A stretch of 59,633 nt of DNA from the IMG/VR virus record IMGVR_UViG_3300023184_000136, positions 1-59,633 of that record; one strand, given 5' to 3'. A model generated the notes under the pieces. The model saw only the letters and a list, made by a program, of their open reading frames with translations. It had not been told where the DNA came from and made no database searches. Shown piece by piece: positions 2,573 through 59,633 of this stretch. The position numbers and the translations under genes were made by a program. This stretch comes from a virus. Taxonomy: Duplodnaviria > Caudoviricetes. Within the stretch, counting starts at the first letter, position 1. Every line of letters starts with the position of its first letter.

Positions 2573-3220
2573 ATGACAACATTTAACAAGACAGCTAATC
2601 TACATCAATACTTTCATTATCAAAGAGGTAGTGTTCATACAGGAACTGCTTGGAATAGACCATCGTACAAATCCATCAAAGATTTTTTCACAGTTATAAG
2701 TCAAGAGACGAATATCTTATCAAAATATGATGTTTATTTAATGGGAGGAATTCTATATGACTTCAAAGAAACTTGGGACGTTGATTTATGTTTAACAGGA
2801 GACATAACAAGTTATGAAGACCTTGAAAATGATATGAACTTAATGTATGACTTAGCGTTAAATCATTTCAAATTACTTTTAGATATTCAATGGTATGAGA
2901 AACCATTACCTGTTATTACTTATGAAGAAATAACTTCAAAAAATTTTGTTCATCATAAACTAAAATACATTAAAACGACATATATCAAGAAAGAAATAGG
3001 TCAAGAAGTAACCGAATTTGATGTTAGAGATAATGAAGGTGTGACAAAATTAACCGAATATTTGGTTAAAGGATATCATGAAGAATATCCGGGAACCAAA
3101 GAAAAAGTAATTAATAGAATAAAAAACAACCCTAATAGAGTATTAAAATCAGTATTTGATGTTAAAACATTTTTAACAACAGACGAACAATATTTTATTA
3201 ATAATACAAATAGAGTTTAA
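2573..3220 (+). CDS. Pol-beta-superfamily minimal nucleotidyltransferase-like protein
   Basis: Motif VYLMGG...TWDVDL (hG[GS]...DhD), plus a later LLDIQ third Asp. Confidence 0.55.
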   Translation: MTTFNKTANLHQYFHYQRGSVHTGTAWNRPSYKSIKDFFTVISQETNILSKYDVYLMGGILYDFKETWDVDLCLTGDITSYEDLENDMNLMYDLALNHFKLLLDIQWYEKPLPVITYEEITSKNFVHHKLKYIKTTYIKKEIGQEVTEFDVRDNEGVTKLTEYLVKGYHEEYPGTKEKVINRIKNNPNRVLKSVFDVKTFLTTDEQYFINNTNRV

Positions 3221-3222
3221 AG

Positions 3223-3230
3223 TATTTATA
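3223..3230 (+). promoter_or_regulatory. TATTTATA putative phage late promoter
   Basis: 3 nt before ATG 3234. The same motif recurs before many structural genes. Confidence 0.5.
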
Positions 3231-3233
3231 GTT

Positions 3234-3452
3234 ATGGCAGTACAAGTTACAATCAGTGGTATTACAGGAACTTCCCCTTATGACATTTACATATGTCAGT
3301 CAGGAGGAACAGGTTGTTTTTATATTACAACCACCTCAACAATACCTTATGTATTTGACATACCAGCACCCAATAACACATCGTTATCGTATATGTTAAA
3401 AATAAAAGATGGGGATGGTTGTACATTTAATGCCATAGCGAACGTATCATGA
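3234..3452 (+). CDS. small beta-rich structural protein, paralog of the N-terminus of the next gene
   Basis: VQVTISGITGTSPYDIYIC...PYVFDIP...KIKDGDGC matches QVTITSVTANTPVEIYYC...PYTFDVP...KIIDTQGC in 3449..4096. Confidence 0.7.
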   Translation: MAVQVTISGITGTSPYDIYICQSGGTGCFYITTTSTIPYVFDIPAPNNTSLSYMLKIKDGDGCTFNAIANVS

Positions 3453-4096
3453 GTCAACAAGTTACAATAACATCGGTTACTGCGAATACCCCTGTAGAAA
3501 TTTATTATTGTGATTCTACTAGTGGGTCTTGTGTTTATGTCCAAACCGTATCAACTTTTCCATATACCTTTGATGTACCTGACCCATATGACACTGAAGA
3601 CTTTGTTATTAAAATCATTGACACCCAAGGATGTATTGACGGAGATATAATCTATATTACACCAACACCAACACCCTCAATTACGCCAAGTCAAACAATC
3701 ACACCTACAGTTACAACAACACCAACTAATACACCATCTCACACTCCAACGACAACACCAACAATTACAGTAACATCAACAGTGACTCCAACAATTACAC
3801 CAACTCCATCAGTAACTCCTGTTCTTTACTATCATGCCAAAGGCCAAAACACATACGTAACATCAGGAGATTGTTGCGGAGATATAATAACTTCAACATA
3901 TTATTACACTTATTTAAGTGATGGTAATACAGTACCTGTGGTTGGAATTAAAGTTTATACTACGCAAGTTTCAGGAGTACTTTATAATCCTTTTAATGGT
4001 AATAATAGATATATTAAAATGATTTGGAATGGAAGTAATTATGCTGTTAGAATTGATATTGTAGGGAACATTGTTGATTTTAGTTTGTGTTCTTAA
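3449..4096 (+). CDS. Thr/Pro-repeat structural protein
   Basis: Central TPTPTPSITP linker between two small beta domains; ATGA overlap with the previous gene. Confidence 0.75.
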   Translation: MSQQVTITSVTANTPVEIYYCDSTSGSCVYVQTVSTFPYTFDVPDPYDTEDFVIKIIDTQGCIDGDIIYITPTPTPSITPSQTITPTVTTTPTNTPSHTPTTTPTITVTSTVTPTITPTPSVTPVLYYHAKGQNTYVTSGDCCGDIITSTYYYTYLSDGNTVPVVGIKVYTTQVSGVLYNPFNGNNRYIKMIWNGSNYAVRIDIVGNIVDFSLCS

Positions 4097-17035: not shown

Positions 17036-17083
17036 AACCCTCACCCTCAACGGTGGGGGTTTTTAATTACAAAGATATTTATT
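17036..17083 (+). repeat. terminator + TATTTAT promoter junction, copy 1
   Basis: AACCCTCACC-ctcaac-GGTGGGGGTTTTT, then TATTTATT at 17076. Confidence 0.7.
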
Positions 17084-17088
17084 GTGAG

Positions 17089-18270
17089 ATGAAAGAATTG
17101 ATTAGACATATATTGTACAACCATATTAACGAACAAAGAGGAGGAGGTAATAAATTAGATACTCAAAAATTCATTGAAAGGGCAAAAGAAATTCATGGAA
17201 ATAAATTTGATTATTCTAAAGTAAATTATGAGGGAATGAGAATTCCTGTTGAAATCATTTGTCCAATACATGGTAAAACAATCCAAACACCTTTGGACCA
17301 TTTAAGAGGCAGTGGATGTAGTAAATGTGGTAATGAATTAAAAAAATATATTAGACTGAAACCTGTTGAGGAGTTTTTGAAACAAGCAAAGGAAGTTCAT
17401 GGGGACAAATATGATTATTCTAAAGTTGATTATAAAAATACAGAAACTAAAGTTAAAATAATATGTCCGATACATGGAGAATTTTTACAATCACCACACA
17501 GTCATTTGGGTGGTAAGGGATGTCCTAAATGTTCAGGTAAAAATCAAACAGAGGACGATTTTATTAGAAAGGCTCAAGAAGTTCATGGAAATAAGTATGA
17601 TTATTCACAATTGAATTTCAAAAATATGTCATCTCCTGTAACAATTATCTGCCCAATTCATGGTAAATTTACTCAAAATGTTGGCCATCACTTAAATGGT
17701 CATGGATGTTTTGAATGTGGAAACGAAAAGAAAATAGAAAACAGAAGAATGTCCATTGATGATTTTGTTAAACAATCACAGGAAATTCATGGGGACAAAT
17801 ATGACTATTCAAAAACTGAAAATGTTAAATTAAACAAAGATTTAACTACAATTATATGTCCAGTACATGGGGAATTTTTACAATCTAGAAATTCACATTT
17901 AAGAGGTAGAGGATGCCCACTATGTAGAGAATCAAAAGGTGAAAAGTTAATAAATAATTTATTAAAACAAAATAGTGTAAATTTTAAGAGACAATATAGA
18001 TTTGATGATTGTACAAATAAGTTTGAAAAATTTTGTGTGAAATTACCATTTGATTTCTATTTACCCGATTTAAATGTTGCAATTGAGTATGACGGAGTCC
18101 AACATTTTGTTCCATCATTTGGCCCCCGTTCATTTGAAATTACTCAAAGAAACGATAAATTTAAAAACAATTATTGTCGTAAAAAAAATATTAAACTAAT
18201 AAGAATACCTTATACTTGGGATGCTGAAAAAGTCAAAACTCAATTAATTAAAAAATTAGGAATTAAATAG
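17089..18270 (+). CDS. putative homing endonuclease: four DUF723-like Zn repeats + C-terminal PD-(D/E)XK/Vsr-like nuclease
   Basis: 4x F..xA.E.HG.KYDYSK...IICP.HG.F.Q....HL.G.GC..C; C-terminal SKGE, LPFDFYLP, IEYDGVQHF. Confidence 0.8.
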   Translation: MKELIRHILYNHINEQRGGGNKLDTQKFIERAKEIHGNKFDYSKVNYEGMRIPVEIICPIHGKTIQTPLDHLRGSGCSKCGNELKKYIRLKPVEEFLKQAKEVHGDKYDYSKVDYKNTETKVKIICPIHGEFLQSPHSHLGGKGCPKCSGKNQTEDDFIRKAQEVHGNKYDYSQLNFKNMSSPVTIICPIHGKFTQNVGHHLNGHGCFECGNEKKIENRRMSIDDFVKQSQEIHGDKYDYSKTENVKLNKDLTTIICPVHGEFLQSRNSHLRGRGCPLCRESKGEKLINNLLKQNSVNFKRQYRFDDCTNKFEKFCVKLPFDFYLPDLNVAIEYDGVQHFVPSFGPRSFEITQRNDKFKNNYCRKKNIKLIRIPYTWDAEKVKTQLIKKLGIK

Positions 18271-39045: not shown

Positions 39046-42012
39046 ATGGCAAATATTATAATTTATCCCAGTAACGCAATTTCAAGACAACCTGGGAGGA
39101 TACCAAAAATAGATTTTTCAAATACCGCAACTATTACTTTACAAGTAATATCTGGGGCTACTATCCAATTTGGAACCAATGCTTTGGTGGTAAATCCAAC
39201 TCTTGGTGCAGTTTCTGCAACAACAATAAATGTTAAAGATTATTATGCTGTCACAGGAGTTCAAGTAATTAATGGTACAAGTTCATGGATTGGACCATCA
39301 ACAAACGTTTTAGGTAATACAGGAGCTCAAGGTAATACAGGAGCTCAAGGCTCAACAGGAGGAGGAGGTTCAGCAGGTGCTCAAGGTAGTACAGGGGCAC
39401 AGGGTTCAACAGGGGCACAAGGTGCAACTGGTAATACAGGTGCTCAAGGTGCTACGGGGGCTCAAGGAGCGATAGGTAATACAGGAGCGATAGGTAATAC
39501 AGGAGCACAAGGTTCAACAGGTGCACAAGGTTCGACAGGTGCTCAGGGCCAAACAGGTAATACAGGTGCTCAAGGTGCTACGGGGGCTCAAGGAGCGATA
39601 GGTAATACAGGAGCAATAGGTAATACAGGAGCCCAAGGAGGAACAGGGGCACAAGGTAGTACAGGTGCTCAAGGCCAAACAGGTAACACAGGAGCCCAAG
39701 GGTCAGGAGGTGCAACAGGAGCCCAAGGTAACACAGGAGCAATAGGTAATACAGGAGCTCAAGGAGCTGGTGGCGGAACAGGAAATACAGGAGCTCAAGG
39801 AGCGACAGGAAATACGGGTGCTCAGGGTTCAGGTGGTGGAACAGGAAATACAGGAGCTCAAGGTCAAACTGGAAATGCGGGAGCTCAGGGAGCGACAGGG
39901 AATGTAGGTACAACAGGACCTGGCGGTAATATAGGTAACACGGGAGCTCAAGGTTTAGGTGGTGGAACAGGAAATACAGGAGCTCAAGGTCAAACTGGAA
40001 ATGCGGGAGCTCAGGGAGCGACAGGGAATGTAGGTACAACAGGACCTGGAGGTAATACAGGAAATACAGGAGCTCAGGGTTCAGGAGGTGGGACAGGAAA
40101 TACAGGAGCTCAAGGGGCACAAGGAGGTGTATATGGTGTAGGCCAAGTATCATATCAAATATGGTCCGTCAATGCTGGTAATGGCAGTCTGTCTCAATAT
40201 GGTCAGTACCCTACTGATTCAACTGATTTTAACAAATGGTTTAATACCGCATATTCTAACTCAACTTTATACTCATCAGGTAATTCTACACCTGGAGTAA
40301 TTTGGGATTTTGTAGTTTGGACGACAATTACAAATGCTGGTATAACAATTCCAGCTACAGCGGGAGATTATATTGCGGTACAAACTTTTTCAACATTCAG
40401 ACCAACAGAAACTGGAACTTATACGTTTACCGCAGAATCAGACGATTCTTGCGACCTTTTTATTAACGGCACAAATGTTGCTAGTTTTTACGGTGGTAGA
40501 GGTACACCCGCATTAGGTACCACAGTGGGAACAATATCTTTAACCGCTGGAGTTAATTACTCAATGAGAGTAAGAATGCAGGAATATGCTGGTGGAGAGG
40601 GATTAAGAATATTTTGGAAAAAACCGTCTCAATCAACTGGAGGCACGTGGTATCAAAATACGGAGGAGGTTGGATTATCAGGCGCTCTTGGTCCAATAGG
40701 AGTTCAAGGAGCTCAGGGCCAAACAGGTCATCCAGGAGCTCAAGGGTCAGGAGGAGCAACGGGAGCTCAAGGTAATCCAGGTCAAACGGGTAATACAGGG
40801 GCTCAAGGAGCGGGAGGAAACGTAGGTACAACAGGACCTGGCGGTAATATAGGTAACACGGGAGCTCAAGGGTCAGGAGGAGCAACGGGAGCTCAAGGTA
40901 ATCCGGGTCAAACAGGACATCCAGGAGCTCAAGGAGCGTTAGGGGCAGGAGGACCACAAGGAGCTGGAGGAGCCACAGGAGCACAAGGTGCTCAAGGTGC
41001 TCAAGGTACTGTGGGACCACAAGGGGCACCAGGATTTCAAGGTAATAGAGGACCACAAGGACCGGGAGGACCAACAGGTGCTCAAGGTTCTCAAGGAGCT
41101 CCAGGATTTCAAGGAGGTGGAGGAGGACAAGGTTCTCAAGGAGCCACAGGACCAGGTGGTGGTACAGGACCTCAAGGTGCACAAGGAGCCACAGGACCAG
41201 GTGGTGGTACAGGACCTCAAGGTGCACAAGGTGCCGGTGGAAACGGAGGGCCAGGTGGTGGACAAGGTGCACAAGGTGCAGGTGGAAACGGAGGACCACA
41301 AGGAGCTCAAGGGTCTCAGGGTGGTTCAGGAAATAGTGGTGCTCAAGGAGCTCAAGGTCCAACAGGACCACAAGGAGCTCAAGGTCCAACAGGACCTCCT
41401 GGAATCAATTGTTATGGCGTTTATTTTTATCTAAATAATAACTGTTATTTTGCGTGTAATTATAATCAATATTATCTTTTAGGTTATCAACAATATTATA
41501 ATTATTTTGTATTTGCAACACCACACTATACAAGTTATACTAACTGTTTGAATACGAACTGTGATTTTGCTGGTCGTCAGTCAATTTACGGTAGTTATAT
41601 GAGTAATTTAATAGAATGTTGGTATGTATTTCCAACCTGTGGTGATGGAGATACTCTACAATATTATTGTTCTTATTTTTCGGATGAAGCATTAAAGACA
41701 GGTATTAAAACGCTTAAGGATGCTCTCCCTAAGTTGTTAGAACTTGAGGCGGTTGAATATGATTGGAATCAAAATCTTGGTGCTGACAAATACGATTACT
41801 TTAAAAGAAGAGGTAAATTACATACCATTGGATTAATTGCTCAAGACGTTAGAAAATATTATCCCGAAGTTGTAGGTATGCATGAAGATGGGTATTATTT
41901 TGTTGAATACCACAAATTAAATGCTGTTTTAGTTGAAGCTATAAAATCACAACAAATATTTATAGAAGATATTAAAGATGAATTAAACTTACTTGAAACT
42001 CTAATAAATTAA
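39046..42012 (+). CDS. collagen-like tail fibre 1 with PA14 domain, Cys/Tyr-rich tip and peptidase S74 chaperone
   Basis: Two long (Gly-X-Y)n tracts; PA14 motifs GTYTF...SDD..DLFING and QEYAGGE; S74 SDEALK...GLIAQDV..YPEVV. Confidence 0.85.
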
Positions 42013-44093
42013 TGGCAAACGTACTCATATATCCTCAAGGGAAAGGTGGTAACACCAATCCACACGTTTTATTTGATGATGGAACTAATAAGCTTCAAAT
42101 AAATGTTACTAACGCATTGGTTTTTTCATCTACAACGGTGTCAAGTGGTGTAACTATTGGAACAGCAAGTATTATTGTTTCAGGGTCATCGACTGCGGGT
42201 TCTACTTATGTTGGTGCAACTCAAATGATTGATGCTACAGGTGTATGGGTAGGACCAACAACAGCAATTAAAGGACTCCAAGGAGCTCAAGGTGCTCAAG
42301 GTAATACAGGTGCACAAGGTAATACAGGAGCACAAGGTGCATCAACAGGTGCTCAAGGTAATACAGGTGCTCAAGGGGGTCAAGGTGCTCAGGGAGCTCA
42401 AGGGGCTGCAACGGGAGCTCAAGGTAATACAGGAGCACAAGGAGGACAAGGTGCTCAAGGTGCACAAGGAGCCGCAACAGGAGCTCAAGGTAATACAGGA
42501 GCTCAAGGAGGAACTGGTGCTCAGGGAGCTCAAGGAGCCGCAATAGGAGCTCAAGGTAATACAGGAGCACAAGGAGGACAAGGTGCTCAAGGTGCACAAG
42601 GAGCTGCAACAGGAGCCCAAGGTAATACAGGAGCCCAAGGAGGAACTGGTGCTCAGGGAGCTCAAGGAGCTGCAACAGGAGCCCAAGGAGCTATAGGTTC
42701 TCAAGGCGCTCAAGGTTCTCAAGGTGCTCAAGGAGCTTCAACAGGAGCCCAAGGTGCCCAAGGAGCTCAAGGAGGAACAGGAGCCCAAGGTGCTCAAGGA
42801 GCTTCAACAGGAGCCCAAGGAGCCCAAGGTGCTCAAGGAGGAACAGGAGCTCAAGGTGCTCAAGGAGCTTCAACAGGAGCTCAAGGAGCTCAAGGAACTT
42901 TAGGTTTCCAAGGAGCTCAAGGTGCTCAAGGAGCCGCAACAGGAGCCCAAGGTGCTCAAGGAGCTCAAGGAGGAACTGGTGCCCAAGGAGCTCAAGGAGC
43001 CGCAACAGGAGCCCAAGGTGCTCAAGGAGCATTAGGTTTCCAAGGAGCCCAAGGTGCTCAAGGAGCCAACACAGGAGCCCAAGGTGCTCAAGGTTCTCAA
43101 GGACCAACAGGAGCACAAGGAGCACAAGGAGCTTCAACAGGTGCACAAGGAGCACAAGGAGCTTTAGGTTTCCAAGGAGCCCAAGGTGCTCAAGGTGGTA
43201 ATACAGGAGCCCAAGGTGCTCAAGGTTCTCAAGGACCAACAGGGGCTCAGGGAGCTCAAGGGGCCAACACAGGGGCTCAAGGTGCTGCAGGAGCTGGAGG
43301 ACCGCAAGGGGCTCAAGGTACTGCGGGAAGTACGGGAGCACAAGGTTCTCAAGGAGCGGTAGGCGCTCAAGGGCCTCAAGGACCAGCAAGTGGAGTTGCA
43401 GGTGCCCCTGGACCAACAGGACCAACAGGTGCTCAAGGTTCCCAAGGACTACAAGGTGGAGGAGGTGCGACAGGAGCCCAAGGAGCCCAAGGTTCAGGTG
43501 GTGGTGGTGGTGGCCAAGGTTCTCAAGGTGCTCAAGGTTCAGGTGGTGGTGGTGGTGGCCAAGGTTCTCAAGGTGCTCAAGGTTCAGGTGGTGGAGGAGG
43601 AGCCACAGGTGCACAAGGTTCTCAAGGAGGAGGAGGAGGACAAGGTGCTCAAGGTCCGGTAGGTGCTGACGGTCCACAAGGAAATACAGGACCCCAAGGA
43701 GATACGGGTAATCAAGGCCATCAAGGTCTTGCAGGACCAGGAGGACCTTCGGATATAAGACTTAAAGATAATGTTGTTAGACTTGAAAATAATTTAGATG
43801 TAATTCAAAAACTTCAAGGTGTCCTTTTTGAATGGGATGACGATAGTGTTTATTTAAGAGGTAACAAAAGTCTTCAATCCCAAGCAGCATTTTCAGGTGA
43901 TTCATTTGGGTTTATTGCTCAGGAGATGGAAAAAGTTATACCTGGAGTTGTTGATACTAATAGAGATGGGTATAAATCTATTGAATATGGTCAACTTGTA
44001 AGTTTAGGGATTGGTTCAATACAAGAACAACAAAAAAGAATAGATTCGATATTAGAAAGAATAAACAAACTTAAAGAATTAGTAAGTGGCTGA
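42012..44093 (+). CDS. collagen-like tail fibre 2 with peptidase S74 chaperone
   Basis: GAQ collagen with periodic GAAT interruptions; SDIRLK...[11 protein letters not shown]. Confidence 0.85.
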
Positions 44094-46215
44094 AGATATA
44101 ATAATAACCCCAGCGTCGGGTAAAATAGACTTTTATGATTCTGCATCCACAGTTACAACATGGGTGATAGAAACAGGTACGCTTAAATTTAAAAGAGGCG
44201 CAACTACGTATCTTTCTATGGATAATACTTATCCAAACTTCAGAGTGACTTCTGCAGATTTAAGATTAATTACATCACTTACAAACAACTCAGGAAACTT
44301 GATAGATTCAACGGGTTGGTTAGGTACAAGATATACTCAAGGTGCTCAAGGTGCTCAAGGAGGACAAGGTGCTCAGGGAGCTCAAGGTGGAACTGGAGGA
44401 CAAGGAGCACAAGGTGCTCAAGGTTCTACAGGTGCTCAAGGCTCTACAGGTGCCCAAGGAGGACAAGGAGCACAAGGAGCTCAAGGAGCAACAGGAACGG
44501 CCGGAGCTCAAGGTTCACAAGGAGGACAAGGTGCTCAAGGTGCTCAAGGTTCAACAGGAGCCCAAGGTTCACAAGGAGCTCAAGGAGGACAAGGAGCACA
44601 AGGTGCTCAAGGGGCGACAGGAACGGCCGGAGCTCAAGGTTCACAAGGAGGACAAGGTGCTCAAGGAGCCCAAGGTTCGACAGGTGCTCAAGGAGCCCAA
44701 GGTGCTCAAGGAGGACAAGGCGCTCAAGGAGCTAAGGGAGGTCAGGGAGCCACAGGAGCTCAAGGTTCACAAGGAGGTCAAGGAGCTCAAGGAGCACAAG
44801 GTGGTGGTGGAGCCACAGGAGCCCAAGGTGCTCAAGGAGGTCAAGGAGCTCAAGGAGCGCAAGGTGGTGGTGGAGCCACAGGAGCCCAAGGTGCTCAAGG
44901 TGGACAAGGAGCTCAAGGAGCTCAAGGAACTAAAGGAGGTCAAGGAGCTCAAGGTTCACAAGGTGGACAAGGAGCTCAAGGAGCACAAGGTGGTGGTGGA
45001 GCCACAGGAGCCCAAGGTGCTCAAGGAGGACAAGGTGCTCAGGGAGCTCAGGGTGGAACTGGAGGACAAGGAGCTCAAGGTTCACAAGGAGGTCAAGGTT
45101 CACAAGGAGGAGCTGGAGGCGCTGGTGCTCAAGGTTCACAAGGAGGAACAGGAGCCCAAGGTGCTCAAGGTGGACAAGGAGCTCAAGGAGCTCAAGGAGC
45201 TCAAGGTTCACAAGGAGGTCAAGGTTCACAAGGAGGAGCTGGAGGTGCTGGTGCTCAAGGTTCACAAGGAGGAACAGGAGGACAAGGTTCTCAAGGTGCT
45301 CAAGGACCTAAGGGTGTTCAAGGAGCTCAAGGTTCACAAGGAGGTCAGGGAGCTCAAGGAGGAGCTGGAGGAGCCGGAGCTCAAGGTTCACAAGGAGGAA
45401 CAGGAGGCCAAGGAGCTCAAGGTGCTCAAGGTTCCCAAGGAGGTCAAGGAGCTCAAGGAGCGACTGCTGCAACCGGTGCTCAAGGTGCTCAAGGAGCTTC
45501 ACCAACAGGACCAACAGGACCAGGAGGTGCTCAAGGTTTCCAAGGAGGACCAGGAGGGCAAGGAGCTCAAGGGTCTCAAGGACCAACAGGACCAGGTGGA
45601 GGACAAGGTGCTCAAGGAGCTCAAGGACCAACAGGACCAGGAGGTGCAACAGGAAGTCAAGGTGCTCAAGGACCAGTAGGACCGGGGGGTGCAACAGGAA
45701 GTCAAGGTGCTCAAGGACCAGTAGGACCAGGTGGAGGTCAAGGTGCTCAAGGAGCTCAAGGACCAGGAGGACCGCAAGGACCAGGAGGTAATCAAGGAGC
45801 TCAAGGACTTCAAGGTGGTGCAGGTATTCAAGGAGCTCAAGGAGCCAAAGGACCTGTCGGAGACCAAGGACCAACAGGACCACCTTCGGATATAAGATTT
45901 AAAAAGAATATTAGAAATATAGAGACACCACTTACAAAATTATTAAAAATAAGAGGAGTTGAGTTTATTTGGAAAAGACCAAATGATGATGGTGATAATA
46001 CGGTTGACATAGGATTTATTGCGCAAGAAGTTGCGGAGATATTCCCTGAATTAGTTTATAGTGGTAATAACACAACGGATTTGAAAAAAGTTAAGTATCA
46101 CGAAATAGTTTCAATTTGTCTTGAGGCGATAAAAGAACAATTTGAAGAATTAGATGAAAGTGAGACTAGATTAGAATATTTTGAAAATAGAATAAAAGAA
46201 AAGGGGTTGATTTAA
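44086..46215 (+). CDS. collagen-like tail fibre 3 with peptidase S74 chaperone
   Basis: GAQ/GGQ collagen; SDIRFK...GFIAQEV.EIFPELV. Confidence 0.85.
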
Positions 46216-57266: not shown

Positions 57267-57605
57267 GTATTCAACGGTATCACCAGGTTGAATATTCAAC
57301 TCTTCGCAAGTTCCACCATCCAATTCCAAAACTATATTACCTCTACCACAATAAGATGGGCAAGGTTTTTTATTACATGGAGGACAATTGGAGTGTATAT
57401 TAACAATAACGTTATTTTTAATCATTATTATATCTAAAGGTATAATACAGTTCTTCATCCAAAAACATTGTTTCTTTCCACCCATTAAGAATAACAAACC
57501 TTCAAAAGATTTATTAAACTTTTTACCCATCATCCCAATTCTTTGGGATTTTTCATCAACAAGTGTTTTGATTTTAAAAATATTATTGTTAACTTTAACT
57601 CTCAT
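57258..57605 (-). CDS. DUF192-family protein
   Basis: GMM, GLLF, FWMKN..IPLDII, PC...PC.SY, VLEL.GG. Confidence 0.85.
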   Translation of the reverse strand: MRVKVNNNIFKIKTLVDEKSQRIGMMGKKFNKSFEGLLFLMGGKKQCFWMKNCIIPLDIIMIKNNVIVNIHSNCPPCNKKPCPSYCGRGNIVLELDGGTCEELNIQPGDTVEYLF

Positions 57606-57619
57606 AACTAATAAATACC

Positions 57620-58039
57620 ATGGATAAAAAAAGATACACAGGAATCATCGTAAAATGTGGAGATAAAATCTTACTTTGTAAAAGAAATAACTTAGGTTCA
57701 TTCCCGGGAATGTGGTCAATACCTGGAGGTAAACTTGAAGAAGATGAGACAACTCAAGAGGGTGCGAAGAGAGAATTCTTTGAAGAAACTGCGGTTGACA
57801 TCCAAGACCAAGAGTTAACTTTTGTTGGTATGATACCTCGACACACCAGAGATGGTAAGAAGATTAAAGGATTGATGTATGTGTATTTATTAAAAGTTGA
57901 TAGCCCAATTCATCCTGATTTGGTTAATGCTATCGATGGAGAAGAACACACTGAATGTGGTTATTTTTCTATTGATGAAATAACCGAAGAGAAGTCAGGT
58001 GAGTATCTTCATAAACTCGCAGAAATAGTTTTACAATGA
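57620..58039 (+). CDS. Nudix hydrolase
   Basis: Nudix box GGKLEEDETTQEGAKREFFEETA. Confidence 0.9.
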   Translation: MDKKRYTGIIVKCGDKILLCKRNNLGSFPGMWSIPGGKLEEDETTQEGAKREFFEETAVDIQDQELTFVGMIPRHTRDGKKIKGLMYVYLLKVDSPIHPDLVNAIDGEEHTECGYFSIDEITEEKSGEYLHKLAEIVLQ

Positions 58040-58152
58040 TAGTTGATGTAATAATATTCGGACTTATGGCAGTAGTAATTGTCGTTGGACTTTATGGTTG
58101 GTGGTCAATAGAGAGACAAATTAAAAAAAATATTGACGATATGGACCTTTAA
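58036..58152 (+). CDS. 38-aa membrane peptide (absent from ORF track)
   Basis: MIVDVIIFGLMAVVIVVGLYGWWSIERQ...; ATGA overlap with the Nudix gene. Confidence 0.5.
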   Translation: MIVDVIIFGLMAVVIVVGLYGWWSIERQIKKNIDDMDL

Positions 58153-58254
58153 TTGAAAAAAAGTATTACCTTTGTAAGACTTTGATGGAAATGGAGATAT
58201 TTATATTTCCACACCTGAAAAGGTGAACATCCCCAAAAAATAGTTTCATAGAAA

Positions 58255-58286
58255 TTTGGCAGTGTCAAAACTGTTGATTACTTTTG
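58255..58286 (+). promoter_or_regulatory. Bacteroidetes sigma70 promoter P1 (TTTG-N20-TACTTTTG)
   Basis: Consensus -33/-7 elements with an A-rich upstream tract. Confidence 0.75.
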
Positions 58287-58362
58287 TGAGACAACCCTAT
58301 CCCACAAGTGAAAAGATTGAGAGATTTGATTAACTTGTGGGGTTTTTTATCGGATGTTGTTT

Positions 58363-58378
58363 AGCTCTTTAAAAATTT
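58363..58378 (+). promoter_or_regulatory. boxA-like antitermination element 1
   Basis: AGCTCTTTAAAAATTT vs rrn boxA TGCTCTTTAACAATTT. Confidence 0.6.
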
Positions 58379-58447
58379 GATTACACCCGCTGGTACAACC
58401 AGCGCATGACGTGGATAGGTGACCGTGGGGAAGTGGGATTGTAATCA
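58378..58447 (+). ncRNA. unidentified small structured RNA A
   Basis: Closing helix TGATTACA/TGTAATCA and internal hairpin CGCTGGT-aca-ACCAGCG; GC-rich in an AT-rich context. Confidence 0.5.
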
Positions 58448-58458
58448 TTAAGATATAT

Positions 58459-58530
58459 CGTGAGGTAGAGCAGTGGTAGCTCGGAAGGCTCATAACCTTT
58501 AGGTCGCGAGTTCGAATCTCGCCCTCGCAA
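58459..58530 (+). tRNA. tRNA-Met(CAT), initiator (fMet) type; CCA not encoded
   Basis: Full cloverleaf, anticodon loop CTCATAA, T-loop TTCGAAT; C1:A72 mismatch and A11:U24. Confidence 0.93.
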
Positions 58531-58562
58531 CAAAAAATAGTTTAACTATTTTTAAAAAAAGA

Positions 58563-58594
58563 TTTGACGAATTGAAAAGTTCTTCATATCTTTG
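58563..58594 (+). promoter_or_regulatory. Bacteroidetes sigma70 promoter P2 (TTTG-N20-TATCTTTG)
   Basis: Consensus elements with the same spacing as P1. Confidence 0.75.
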
Positions 58595-58617
58595 AAAAAC
58601 AATCGGGTAAAACCGAA

Positions 58618-58630
58618 AGTTCTTTAACAT
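58618..58630 (+). promoter_or_regulatory. boxA-like element 2
   Basis: AGTTCTTTAACAT, preceded by the hairpin TCGG-gtaaaa-CCGA. Confidence 0.6.
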
Positions 58631-58631
58631 C

Positions 58632-58693
58632 GAGATGCAGTTAACCTGTCCCATTAGGAGTGGGAGGTGATTGAGGGTGAATAACACATCTTC
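58632..58693 (+). ncRNA. unidentified small structured RNA B
   Basis: GAGATG/CATCTT closing helix; nested CAGTTAACC/GGTGATTG and TCCCAT/GTGGGA stems. Confidence 0.45.
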
Positions 58694-58743
58694 AATGAAG
58701 AATAACGAATTCAGTTATTTTGTTAAAAAAACTTACAAAAAAG

Positions 58744-58775
58744 TTTGATTGTTTCCCAAAACATTCTTACCTTTG
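58744..58775 (+). promoter_or_regulatory. Bacteroidetes sigma70 promoter P3 (TTTG-N20-TACCTTTG)
   Basis: Consensus elements with the same spacing as P1 and P2. Confidence 0.75.
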
Positions 58776-58857
58776 TAAGACAAAAGAAGAGAAGGGGTAG
58801 TTAAGGTCCCAAGTTTACTTGGCCGTAAAGTTTTCCCTTTTCTTCTTTTTAAAAAAA

Positions 58858-58870
58858 AGTTCTTTGAATA
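58858..58870 (+). promoter_or_regulatory. boxA-like element 3
   Basis: AGTTCTTTGAATA after the long hairpin at 58782-58849. Confidence 0.55.
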
Positions 58871-58944
58871 AAAATATTGTCTGTTCAGAATGTTTGATAA
58901 TGAGACCTTCGGGTTGATTTTGAATAACAAAATGATAAGATATA

Positions 58945-59633
58945 TTGGGCGGTCTATAGTCCATAAAATAAACCATGAAAGTGGTATAAAGTGATTTGTT
59001 CTTGATTGGAACGGTTGCGGCTTCGGGAACGGAGCTCGAGTAGACAAGCGGGATATCATTCGACCTTGAGTACTGAGGGTAACACTGTAGGGAAAGTGGT
59101 TGAGTGACTAAGCGATGTGGGTCGTTTAGTTGAGGTGGGAACACCGATAAGAATAACTCGTAGAGCTGTTGTAAGAAGTATGGTCGTCCAACTATACAAT
59201 TACGGAGTTCAATATTAGAGTAGATTTAAAACCGAAAGGTAAGAGTTCGTACAGGTGGTGCTGTTGCTCTCCTTATCAGATACCTACCAAGGTGTCAGTT
59301 ATGAAGTAAACTCAAAGTATGGAGGTCGGGAGACTTCAAGGTGTAGTTCAGTATCGTCTCATTCAAAAGATGAGATGACTGGTTTGACGGACCGCTACAT
59401 CTATTATCCACAAATCACAACTTTGTTAATTAAGGTTTAACAACTTATAAATCAATAAAGGAAAAGTGTTCGTCAGTCGTGGTAGACAGGTCACTACTTA
59501 GTCATGAGTTGTTCATGGCCGTAAAGGGTCCCAAACCCGATACGATTGTTTTGAAAGTTCTCTAATCCCGCAAGGATGAGTTTGGGTGGCAACCTAGAAG
59601 AGTGATGAGTAAGAATAGAGTATATTACGACTT
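58945..59633 (+). ncRNA. large ornate structured ncRNA, GOLLD-like (3' truncated by window)
   Basis: No credible ORF; many GNRA-capped hairpins; long-range helices GTGATTTGT(58991)/ACAAATCAC(59410) and AGTCGTGGTA(59475)/TATTACGACT(59623); close to a phage tRNA. Confidence 0.7.

Follow-up and report, generated by a model that had tools for sequence, protein, structure and literature searches.

A GOLLD RNA truncated by the end of a freshwater phage contig

Does the end of this phage contig encode a member of a known family of giant RNAs or a class of its own? The window considered here, i.e. the whole 59,633-nt stretch of DNA that was analysed, is a linear IMG/VR record that is ∼20% complete according to CheckV. 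A first-pass annotation had marked 58945–59633 as a giant ornate noncoding RNA with many GNRA-capped hairpins, either of the GOLLD type or of a new class, in a Bacteroidota phage. GOLLD has been known as a family since 2009. In the available text of two structural reports (10.1101/2024.12.08.627333; PMC12990946), it is divided into a 3′ region that is conserved universally and a preceding, less conserved 5′ region, the latter of which is omitted from the Rfam model; in the structure of env-38 GOLLD, the 5′ region comprises residues 1–420 and the 3′ region residues 421–833 (10.1101/2024.12.08.627333).

The window was scanned against all 4227 Rfam families at the gathering score, and GOLLD (RF02032) and one tRNA were the only families to pass in its whole length. 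The GOLLD match is located at 59339–59633 on the plus strand with a score of 210 bits (E = 5.6e-58), compared with a gathering cut-off of 150 bits; a search in its own genome gave 207 bits at the same place. The match spans positions 1–299 of the 416 positions in the model and is flagged as cut at its 3′ end, which coincides with the contig end; therefore, 58945–59633 represents a GOLLD RNA minus the last ∼117 model positions. The Infernal check that had been proposed, using the GOLLD, ROOL, OLE, RNase P and group I/II models, thus has a simple outcome: GOLLD passes and the others do not. Within the 3′ domain (model positions ∼137–416), positions 137–299 are present and well paired, including a complete enclosing helix formed by 59475–59484 with 59623–59632, and the remainder lies beyond the contig end. 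The A/T linker followed by a second domain running off the window, as described in the first-pass annotation, is also seen in the Rfam alignment.

The 3′ domain is whole in seven of the eight relatives with a GOLLD match among the matches listed, the exception being L050, which is cut by a contig end. Counted from the GGGCGG start through the last model position, full relatives among the matches listed are ∼820–840 nt in length, and the window holds 687 nt up to the contig end. The stretch 58947–59633 is thus very probably the first ∼690 nt of a ∼820-nt GOLLD RNA of a ∼320 kb freshwater jumbo phage, probably of Bacteroidota, located downstream of a tRNA-Met and truncated only by the contig end, with the complete RNA deduced from relatives and its last ∼117 model positions absent from the window. 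It is an ordinary truncated member of an already known family, the structures of which were solved in 2024–25, and is not novel. The features of the locus are collected in Table 1.

Table 1. Features of the GOLLD locus and its immediate surroundings in the window.
Feature	Positions	Strand	Sequence	Basis or remark
tRNA-Met (anticodon CAT)	58459–58531	+		Rfam 63.7 bits (58459–58530), ARAGORN; context, not part of the RNA
Putative promoter −7 element	58859–58866	+	GTTCTTTG	Putatively assigned to the GOLLD transcript
Optional leader, ∼65–80 nt	58867–58946	+	UUCG hairpin ACC-TTCG-GGT (58905–58914)	Alignment of relatives
GOLLD 5′ domain	58947–59338	+		21 helices; beyond the Rfam model; homology, collinearity, covariation
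Helix 2		+	ACCAT-GAAA-GTGGT	Covaries in relatives
Helices 4/5		+	GCTTCG-GGAA-CGGAGC	Covary in relatives
Helix 10		+	GACTAAGCGAT/GTCGTTTAGTT	Covaries in relatives
Helix 11		+	GGTG-GGAA-CACC	Covaries in relatives
Helix 18		+	ACC-GAAA-GGT	Covaries in relatives
Helix 21		+	GAGGTC-GGGA-GACTTC	Covaries in relatives
Long conserved hairpin ending the 5′ half	59339–59403	+		Rfam model 1–62; helices 22/23
Helices 22/23		+	AGGTGTAG/CTACATCT and TCGTCTCAT/ATGAGATGA	First hairpin of the Rfam GOLLD model
A/U-rich variable linker between domains	59404–59474 (approximate)	+		Unpaired in the Rfam model; poorly conserved in the alignment
Beginning of the 3′ domain, universally conserved in GOLLD	59475–59633	+		Ends at model position 299 of 416
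Rfam 3′-domain hairpins		+	CC-GCAA-GG and GGGT-GGCA-ACCT	Rfam alignment

The Rfam model starts only at 59339, and the relationships of the preceding 5′ domain were established by sequence searches. A blastn search of 58900–59633 against 50,697 phage records found LR756502.1 (642 kb) and LR745206.1 (635 kb), both of which align via the 5′ part only (67–73% identity) and carry GOLLD (275 and 287 bits, respectively, model positions 1–416) directly after the matching stretch; blastn of a complete 3′ domain, that of L013, gave no match in the phage collection. A first search of IMG/VR for a 15-mer of the 5′ domain yielded at least 119 loci, most of which were chance occurrences; among the matches listed, ten of the 119 proved to be genuinely related to the 5′ domain (73–94% identity by blastn). 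GOLLD scored above the cut-off in eight of these ten (263–328 bits), and the other two loci among the matches listed end before the 3′ domain. A second scan with a degenerate 3′-domain pattern returned at least 120 loci, a sample that is biased towards the lineage of the window because the pattern was written from that lineage.

When nhmmer profiles were applied to the 126 loci among the matches listed, the 3′ profile was found in 124 and the 5′ profile in 108. Among the 18 loci without a 5′ match, 11 of the matches listed are cut too near the locus end to tell; the other seven have upstream room and align with the 3′ profile in its second half only, and these constitute a different GOLLD subtype. 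Since the 5′ domain type of the window occurs in 108 of the 126 loci among the matches listed, it is the common freshwater form and not a new class, and this form is plainly widespread despite the bias of the sample. The same pattern applied to one genome per prokaryote species gave 11 loci, six of which are GOLLD above the cut-off. Five of the six are Streptococcus loci with no 5′-profile match and a partial 3′ match only, and the sixth, with the 5′ domain type of the window, is on a 7.4 kb contig from a Flavobacterium MAG (metagenome-assembled genome).

The structure of the RNA was characterized using an alignment of 13 sequences, comprising the window, the ten relatives and the two huge phages. 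RNAalifold predicted 176 pairs, 89 of which show compensatory changes. In the 5′ half, which comprises 134 pairs in 23 helices, 96.8% of the alignment cells hold a standard pair, compared with 36.1–43.6% in controls in which the pairing partners were slid by 1–3 columns, and the number of pairs changed on both sides is 65 as given versus 12–25 in the slid controls. Furthermore, none of 500 column shuffles attained any of five covariation measures in the 5′ half, figures that should be read with the caveat that the sequences are related and that the structure was derived from the very alignment on which it was tested. The slid controls, together with the many pair types per position, leave little doubt about the helices, and the covariation that the first-pass annotation had asked for in homologs is present. 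The predicted fold of 58930–59400 is better than that of shuffled sequences on the plus strand (z = −3.90, 0 of 100 as good) but not on the minus strand (z = −0.89, 20 of 100 as good).

Every GNRA-capped hairpin that had been listed in that annotation is present at the place given for it, and each corresponds to a covarying helix or to a 3′-domain hairpin of Rfam; likewise, the three further stems that it had picked out proved to be the covarying helices 10 and 22/23 (Table 1). Pairing reaches 100% in helix 22 and 97.4% in helix 23, with compensatory changes in 11 of their 22 pairs, and the outer helix of 59339–59403 pairs in all 79 distinct sequences among the matches listed. The GAAA loops at 58977–58980 and 59234–59237 in the 5′ domain are invariant.

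A different result was obtained for the long-range 9-bp helix that had been thought to close the 5′ domain (GGCGGTCT, 58948–58955 with 59389–59396). Its covariation in the 13 sequences is at the level of shuffles, 298 of 500 of which reach it, and three of its eight positions pair in just 39, 41 and 30 of the 79 distinct sequences obtained from the 103 extracted among the matches listed. Helices that compete for the same positions, namely the local helix 58947–58950/58959–58962 and the outer Rfam helix, are far better paired (from 71 of 71 to 79 of 79 among the matches listed) with several pair types, and the closing helix was rejected. A reduced version, in which the loop of hairpin 1 (58951–58955) would pair with a bulge (59389–59393), was also dropped because two of its five positions pair in just 41 and 30 of the 79 sequences among the matches listed. 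With regard to coding, no open reading frame over the 5′ domain is kept open in the relatives; the minus-strand frames 58733–59059 and 58815–59144 were considered and rejected, as their longest open stretch shrinks to 32–52 codons in L050, L075, L013 and L026.

The probable boundaries of the transcript can be drawn from the flanking sequence. The putative −7 element, an imperfect match to TAnnTTTG, is conserved in all seven of the relatives that have this region, out of eight aligned among the matches listed. In L109 and L013, a TTCTTTG box is located 12–14 nt upstream of the GGGCGG start of the RNA, a spacing that fits a Bacteroidota −7 box. The leader is present in the window, L050, L055, L026 and L075 and is absent from L109 and L013, in which the box abuts the RNA; it has a blastn match in 33 of the 90 loci with 950 nt of upstream sequence among the matches listed. 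At the other end, the complete GOLLD of L109 (327.9 bits), which is 99.6% identical to the window over 59401–59633, is followed ∼45 nt past the 3′ domain by a hairpin and T-run forming an intrinsic terminator. The tRNA-Met is located upstream at a distance of 415 nt from GOLLD; a tRNA on the same strand lies upstream in nine of the ten close relatives among the matches listed, and this tRNA-Met has a blastn match in 42 of the same 90 loci.

Transcript evidence was sought in public sequencing runs containing the stretch, which come from lake, freshwater, estuary and sediment samples in 16 studies and include six RNA libraries; contigs were examined from four RNA runs of four studies. In run X15, a single 867-nt RNA contig begins at 58901 and overruns the window end by 134 nt, with just a 41-nt piece besides. 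This contig, which stops ∼23 nt short of the terminator of L109, corresponds essentially to the transcript that was predicted, the ends of which would lie near 58870 (or near 58945 after processing) and at the terminator, ∼155 nt past the window end. For X18 and X19, contig depths added up to ∼4,600–240,000 over 58960–59633 versus 0–10 over the genes at 57600–58415, where the sums include many related strains (≥85% likeness), the runs were picked for containing the stretch and the material is RNA contigs only, with possible carry-over of DNA. The variant contigs over GOLLD number 260 in X18 and 653 in X19, of which 203 in X19 are at ≥99% likeness. These values hint at a high abundance of GOLLD RNA; uncovered parts of 57600–58900 in the RNA contigs carry no weight as silence.

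The gene content of the window is that of a phage. Its frames are dense under the standard genetic code, and PHROGs matches among 58 ORFs include a primase, an exonuclease, SbcC-like and SbcD-like nuclease subunits, an HNH endonuclease, four DNA methyltransferases, a sigma factor, three collagen-like tail fibre proteins and a NUDIX hydrolase. The fibre matches are three consecutive genes at 39046–46215 (988, 693 and 709 amino acids) that contain repeated stretches and look like a tandem paralogous set, and the HNH or homing endonuclease gene (17053–18270; phrog_559, E = 2.7e-83) lies amid replication and repair genes. A complete phage of 321,139 nt with terminal repeats (G001) encodes counterparts of two window proteins (76% and 78% identity), and both genes stand in the order and spacing of the window relative to its single GOLLD. 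From this collinearity, the window therefore covers about one fifth of a similarly sized jumbo phage. No homologue of the two tested proteins was detectable in the 635 and 642 kb phages, and thus the same GOLLD form occurs in very different phages; exactly one GOLLD copy was found in each of the four large phage records searched. In tblastn searches against the phage collection, a 661-amino-acid structural-like protein gave no match and the SbcC-like protein gave four distant ones (22–28% identity).

The host can be approached through the expression signals. The −33/−7 promoter of Bacteroidota has the form TTTG-N18-21-TAnnTTTG. In the window, this type of pattern has nine matches, all on the gene strand, versus 3.2 ± 1.6 expected, and none of 100 shuffles reached nine. 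In addition, a Shine–Dalgarno-like word stands upstream of just eight of the 58 ORFs, and the form of GOLLD seen in the window is carried by the contig binned with the Flavobacterium MAG. Phages of more than 634 kb are predicted to infect Bacteroidetes in the available text of the huge-phage paper, and LR756502.1 and LR745206.1 would appear to belong to these genomes. The claim of a Bacteroidota phage is thus divided: that the DNA is from a phage is established by gene content and collinearity with the complete 321 kb phage, and that the host is a member of the Bacteroidota is probable on the indirect evidence of the promoters, the few Shine–Dalgarno motifs, the Flavobacterium MAG and the phages of more than 634 kb. 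The Flavobacterium-MAG contig (L241) also encodes a tmRNA at 3185–3587, 2.4 kb downstream of GOLLD, with the unusual tag ATSNVAVA; the tmRNA is probably phage-encoded, and the tag is uninformative on the host.

Could the 5′ part nevertheless be something new? In such a case, the first 390 nt would belong to an independent, novel RNA that happens to adjoin a GOLLD 3′ domain, and it is true that 58947–59338 lies outside the Rfam model and that a permissive Rfam scan of 58040–59000 (E up to 1) returned only the tRNA and one chance-level snoRNA (E = 0.63). However, the part outside the model is what the definition of GOLLD in the available text of the structural reports leads one to expect, i.e. 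the known variable 5′ domain, here in the same version in 108 of the 126 loci among the matches listed. In these 108 loci, both parts occur collinearly and with a constant spacing; one 867-nt RNA contig covers both, and no promoter-like or terminator-like element was found between them in the window sequence. A separate RNA is thus extremely improbable, and the new class suggested by the first-pass annotation was abandoned. Confusion with another large element (ROOL, OLE, HEARO, RNase P or a group I or II intron) has a practically negligible probability: the size, the many GNRA loops, the phage context and the neighbouring tRNA are all common with ROOL, but the 4227-family scan yielded GOLLD and one tRNA only, an intron-type ORF or flanking exon is absent and no frame is open across the domain in the relatives.

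The copy might also be GOLLD by descent but decayed or inactive. It is incomplete in the window, and among the 11 contigs in the initial set, four (the window, L050, L075 and L097) end inside GOLLD or within 10 nt of it. However, the truncation coincides exactly with the contig end, no non-canonical pair is flagged in the Rfam alignment of the present part, the nearly identical copy in L109 is complete, and RNA contigs of ≥99% likeness exist in X19. The contig ends themselves suggest that assemblies break at GOLLD because many co-occurring strain variants share its conserved segments, which explains the breaks better than decay. A decayed copy is therefore very unlikely, and a truncated GOLLD RNA remains the preferred reading.

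What such an RNA may do can be considered by comparison with the solved structures. In the available text of the report on env-38 (Kretsch et al., 10.1101/2024.12.08.627333), this 833-nt GOLLD forms a homo-14-mer with D7 symmetry and a size of 380 Å (PDB entry 9MEE), with stability at 12.5 nM; its caps are built from the 5′ domains and its rings from the 3′ domains, and the disordered linker faces the cage interior. The env-38 gene is located downstream of a tRNA-Met (10.1101/2024.12.08.627333). The RNA of the window shares with env-38 the two domains, a ∼420-nt 5′ region, a variable linker, a conserved 3′ region, an aquatic origin and the upstream tRNA-Met; the length of its relatives (∼820–840 nt among the matches listed, versus 833 nt) is similar, and the 5′ domain of its lineage has conserved GAAA loops. 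It differs in that the window copy is incomplete at its 3′ end and in that the window and some relatives have an extra leader of ∼65 nt; this comparison concerns layout, length and context, not sequence or individual helices. The GOLLD of Streptococcus agalactiae is described in the available text of PMC12990946 as a 700-nt RNA forming a 12-mer (PDB entry 9L0R), and the form in Lactobacillales prophages as shorter, without P9, P11a–c and P21b. This form belongs to the same Rfam family, and the five Streptococcus genome loci found here score 211–277 bits with tRNAs beside them; however, the 5′ profile of the window lineage is absent from all five and just the second half of the 3′ profile matches. 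ROOL is also a large ornate phage RNA found near tRNAs that forms RNA-only cages of 6- to 8-mers (available text of 10.1101/2024.12.08.627333), but its sequence and fold are unrelated, and the window contains no ROOL match at the gathering score.

By homology with the two solved GOLLDs, the RNA would be an abundant, protein-free structural RNA that self-assembles into a closed cage of 12–14 chains, in which the 5′ domains would form two caps and the 3′ domains the rings, with the linker directed inwards. The RNA represented in the window would most likely form such a cage, and its length and tRNA-Met context make it somewhat probable that its lineage corresponds to the 14-mer form of env-38. 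The functional hypotheses in the available text of both reports are the encapsulation of tRNAs or ribosomes and the storage of embedded tRNAs (10.1101/2024.12.08.627333; PMC12990946). The cage might belong to a phage module for the take-over of tRNAs and translation, holding or shielding tRNAs or ribosomal components late in infection; such a role in translation support is a speculative guess, and a doubtful one.

The locus illustrates that a giant structured RNA can be recognized from its sequence alone, although the standard Rfam model would find the same RNA, and little is added to GOLLD biology beyond genomic and expression context. This context consists of a common freshwater GOLLD form that occurs once per genome in ∼320 kb jumbo phages and in 635–642 kb phages, which probably infect Bacteroidota, and of a contig-level hint that GOLLD RNA figures prominently in RNA libraries from freshwater and estuaries. 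No paper linking GOLLD to huge or jumbo phages was found in a literature search that was thin on subscription journals and supplements, which is not proof of absence. The only part that merits a further look is the upstream cluster of small RNAs.

This cluster occupies the ∼800 nt upstream of GOLLD and consists of small units, driven by promoters, that subsets of the relatives conserve and that seem to be previously undescribed. The unit U1 (58176–58262) is a conserved motif of ∼85 nt that follows a TACCTTTG promoter box and contains an invariant ATATTTATA, a 4-bp hairpin, GAACAYCCCC and an A-run; all four pairs of the hairpin show compensatory changes in 24 distinct sequences among the matches listed. 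It has at least 45 copies in GOLLD loci (nhmmer) at varying distances from GOLLD and has no Rfam match. U2 (58255–58352) comprises a promoter match (58255–58286) and a terminator-like hairpin, CCCACAAGT...ACTTGTGGGG, with a T-run. Just 5′ of the tRNA-Met, U3 (58385–58422, within 58370–58452) has a 38-nt core, CCCGCTGGTACAACCAGCGCATGACGTGGATAGGTGAC, that is nearly invariant in 13 distinct relatives among the matches listed even where the flanks differ; it contains a GCUGGU/ACCAGC hairpin but shows no covariation (0 of 11 predicted pairs compensated).

U4 (58563–58742) begins with a perfect Bacteroidota-type promoter (TTTG, 20 nt, TATCTTTG; 58563–58594), followed by a unit of ∼140 nt that appears as its own 138-nt contig in RNA run X19 (58601–58738, depth 123, one differing letter). 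It is found in 11 of the 90 loci among the matches listed and has no Rfam match and no plausible ORF. U5 (58744–58856) consists of a promoter match (58744–58775) and a 66-nt hairpin (58783–58848) ending in a T-run; U2 and U5, each a short hairpin RNA driven by its promoter match, are each conserved in 11–12 of the 90 loci among the matches listed. It is conceivable, but quite unlikely, that GOLLD is the last gene of a conserved multi-promoter island of unannotated small RNAs (58176–58856; U1, U3, U4 and U5) in freshwater Bacteroidota jumbo phages, and that at least one of these RNAs represents a new structured class in phages and works with the cage as cargo, assembly factor or regulator. The occurrence of the 10-mer GGCCGTAAAG and of GGTCCCAA in both the U5 hairpin (58806–58832) and the GOLLD 3′ domain (59518–59535) was judged to be due to chance because the copy in U5 changes in the relatives and the copy in GOLLD does not.
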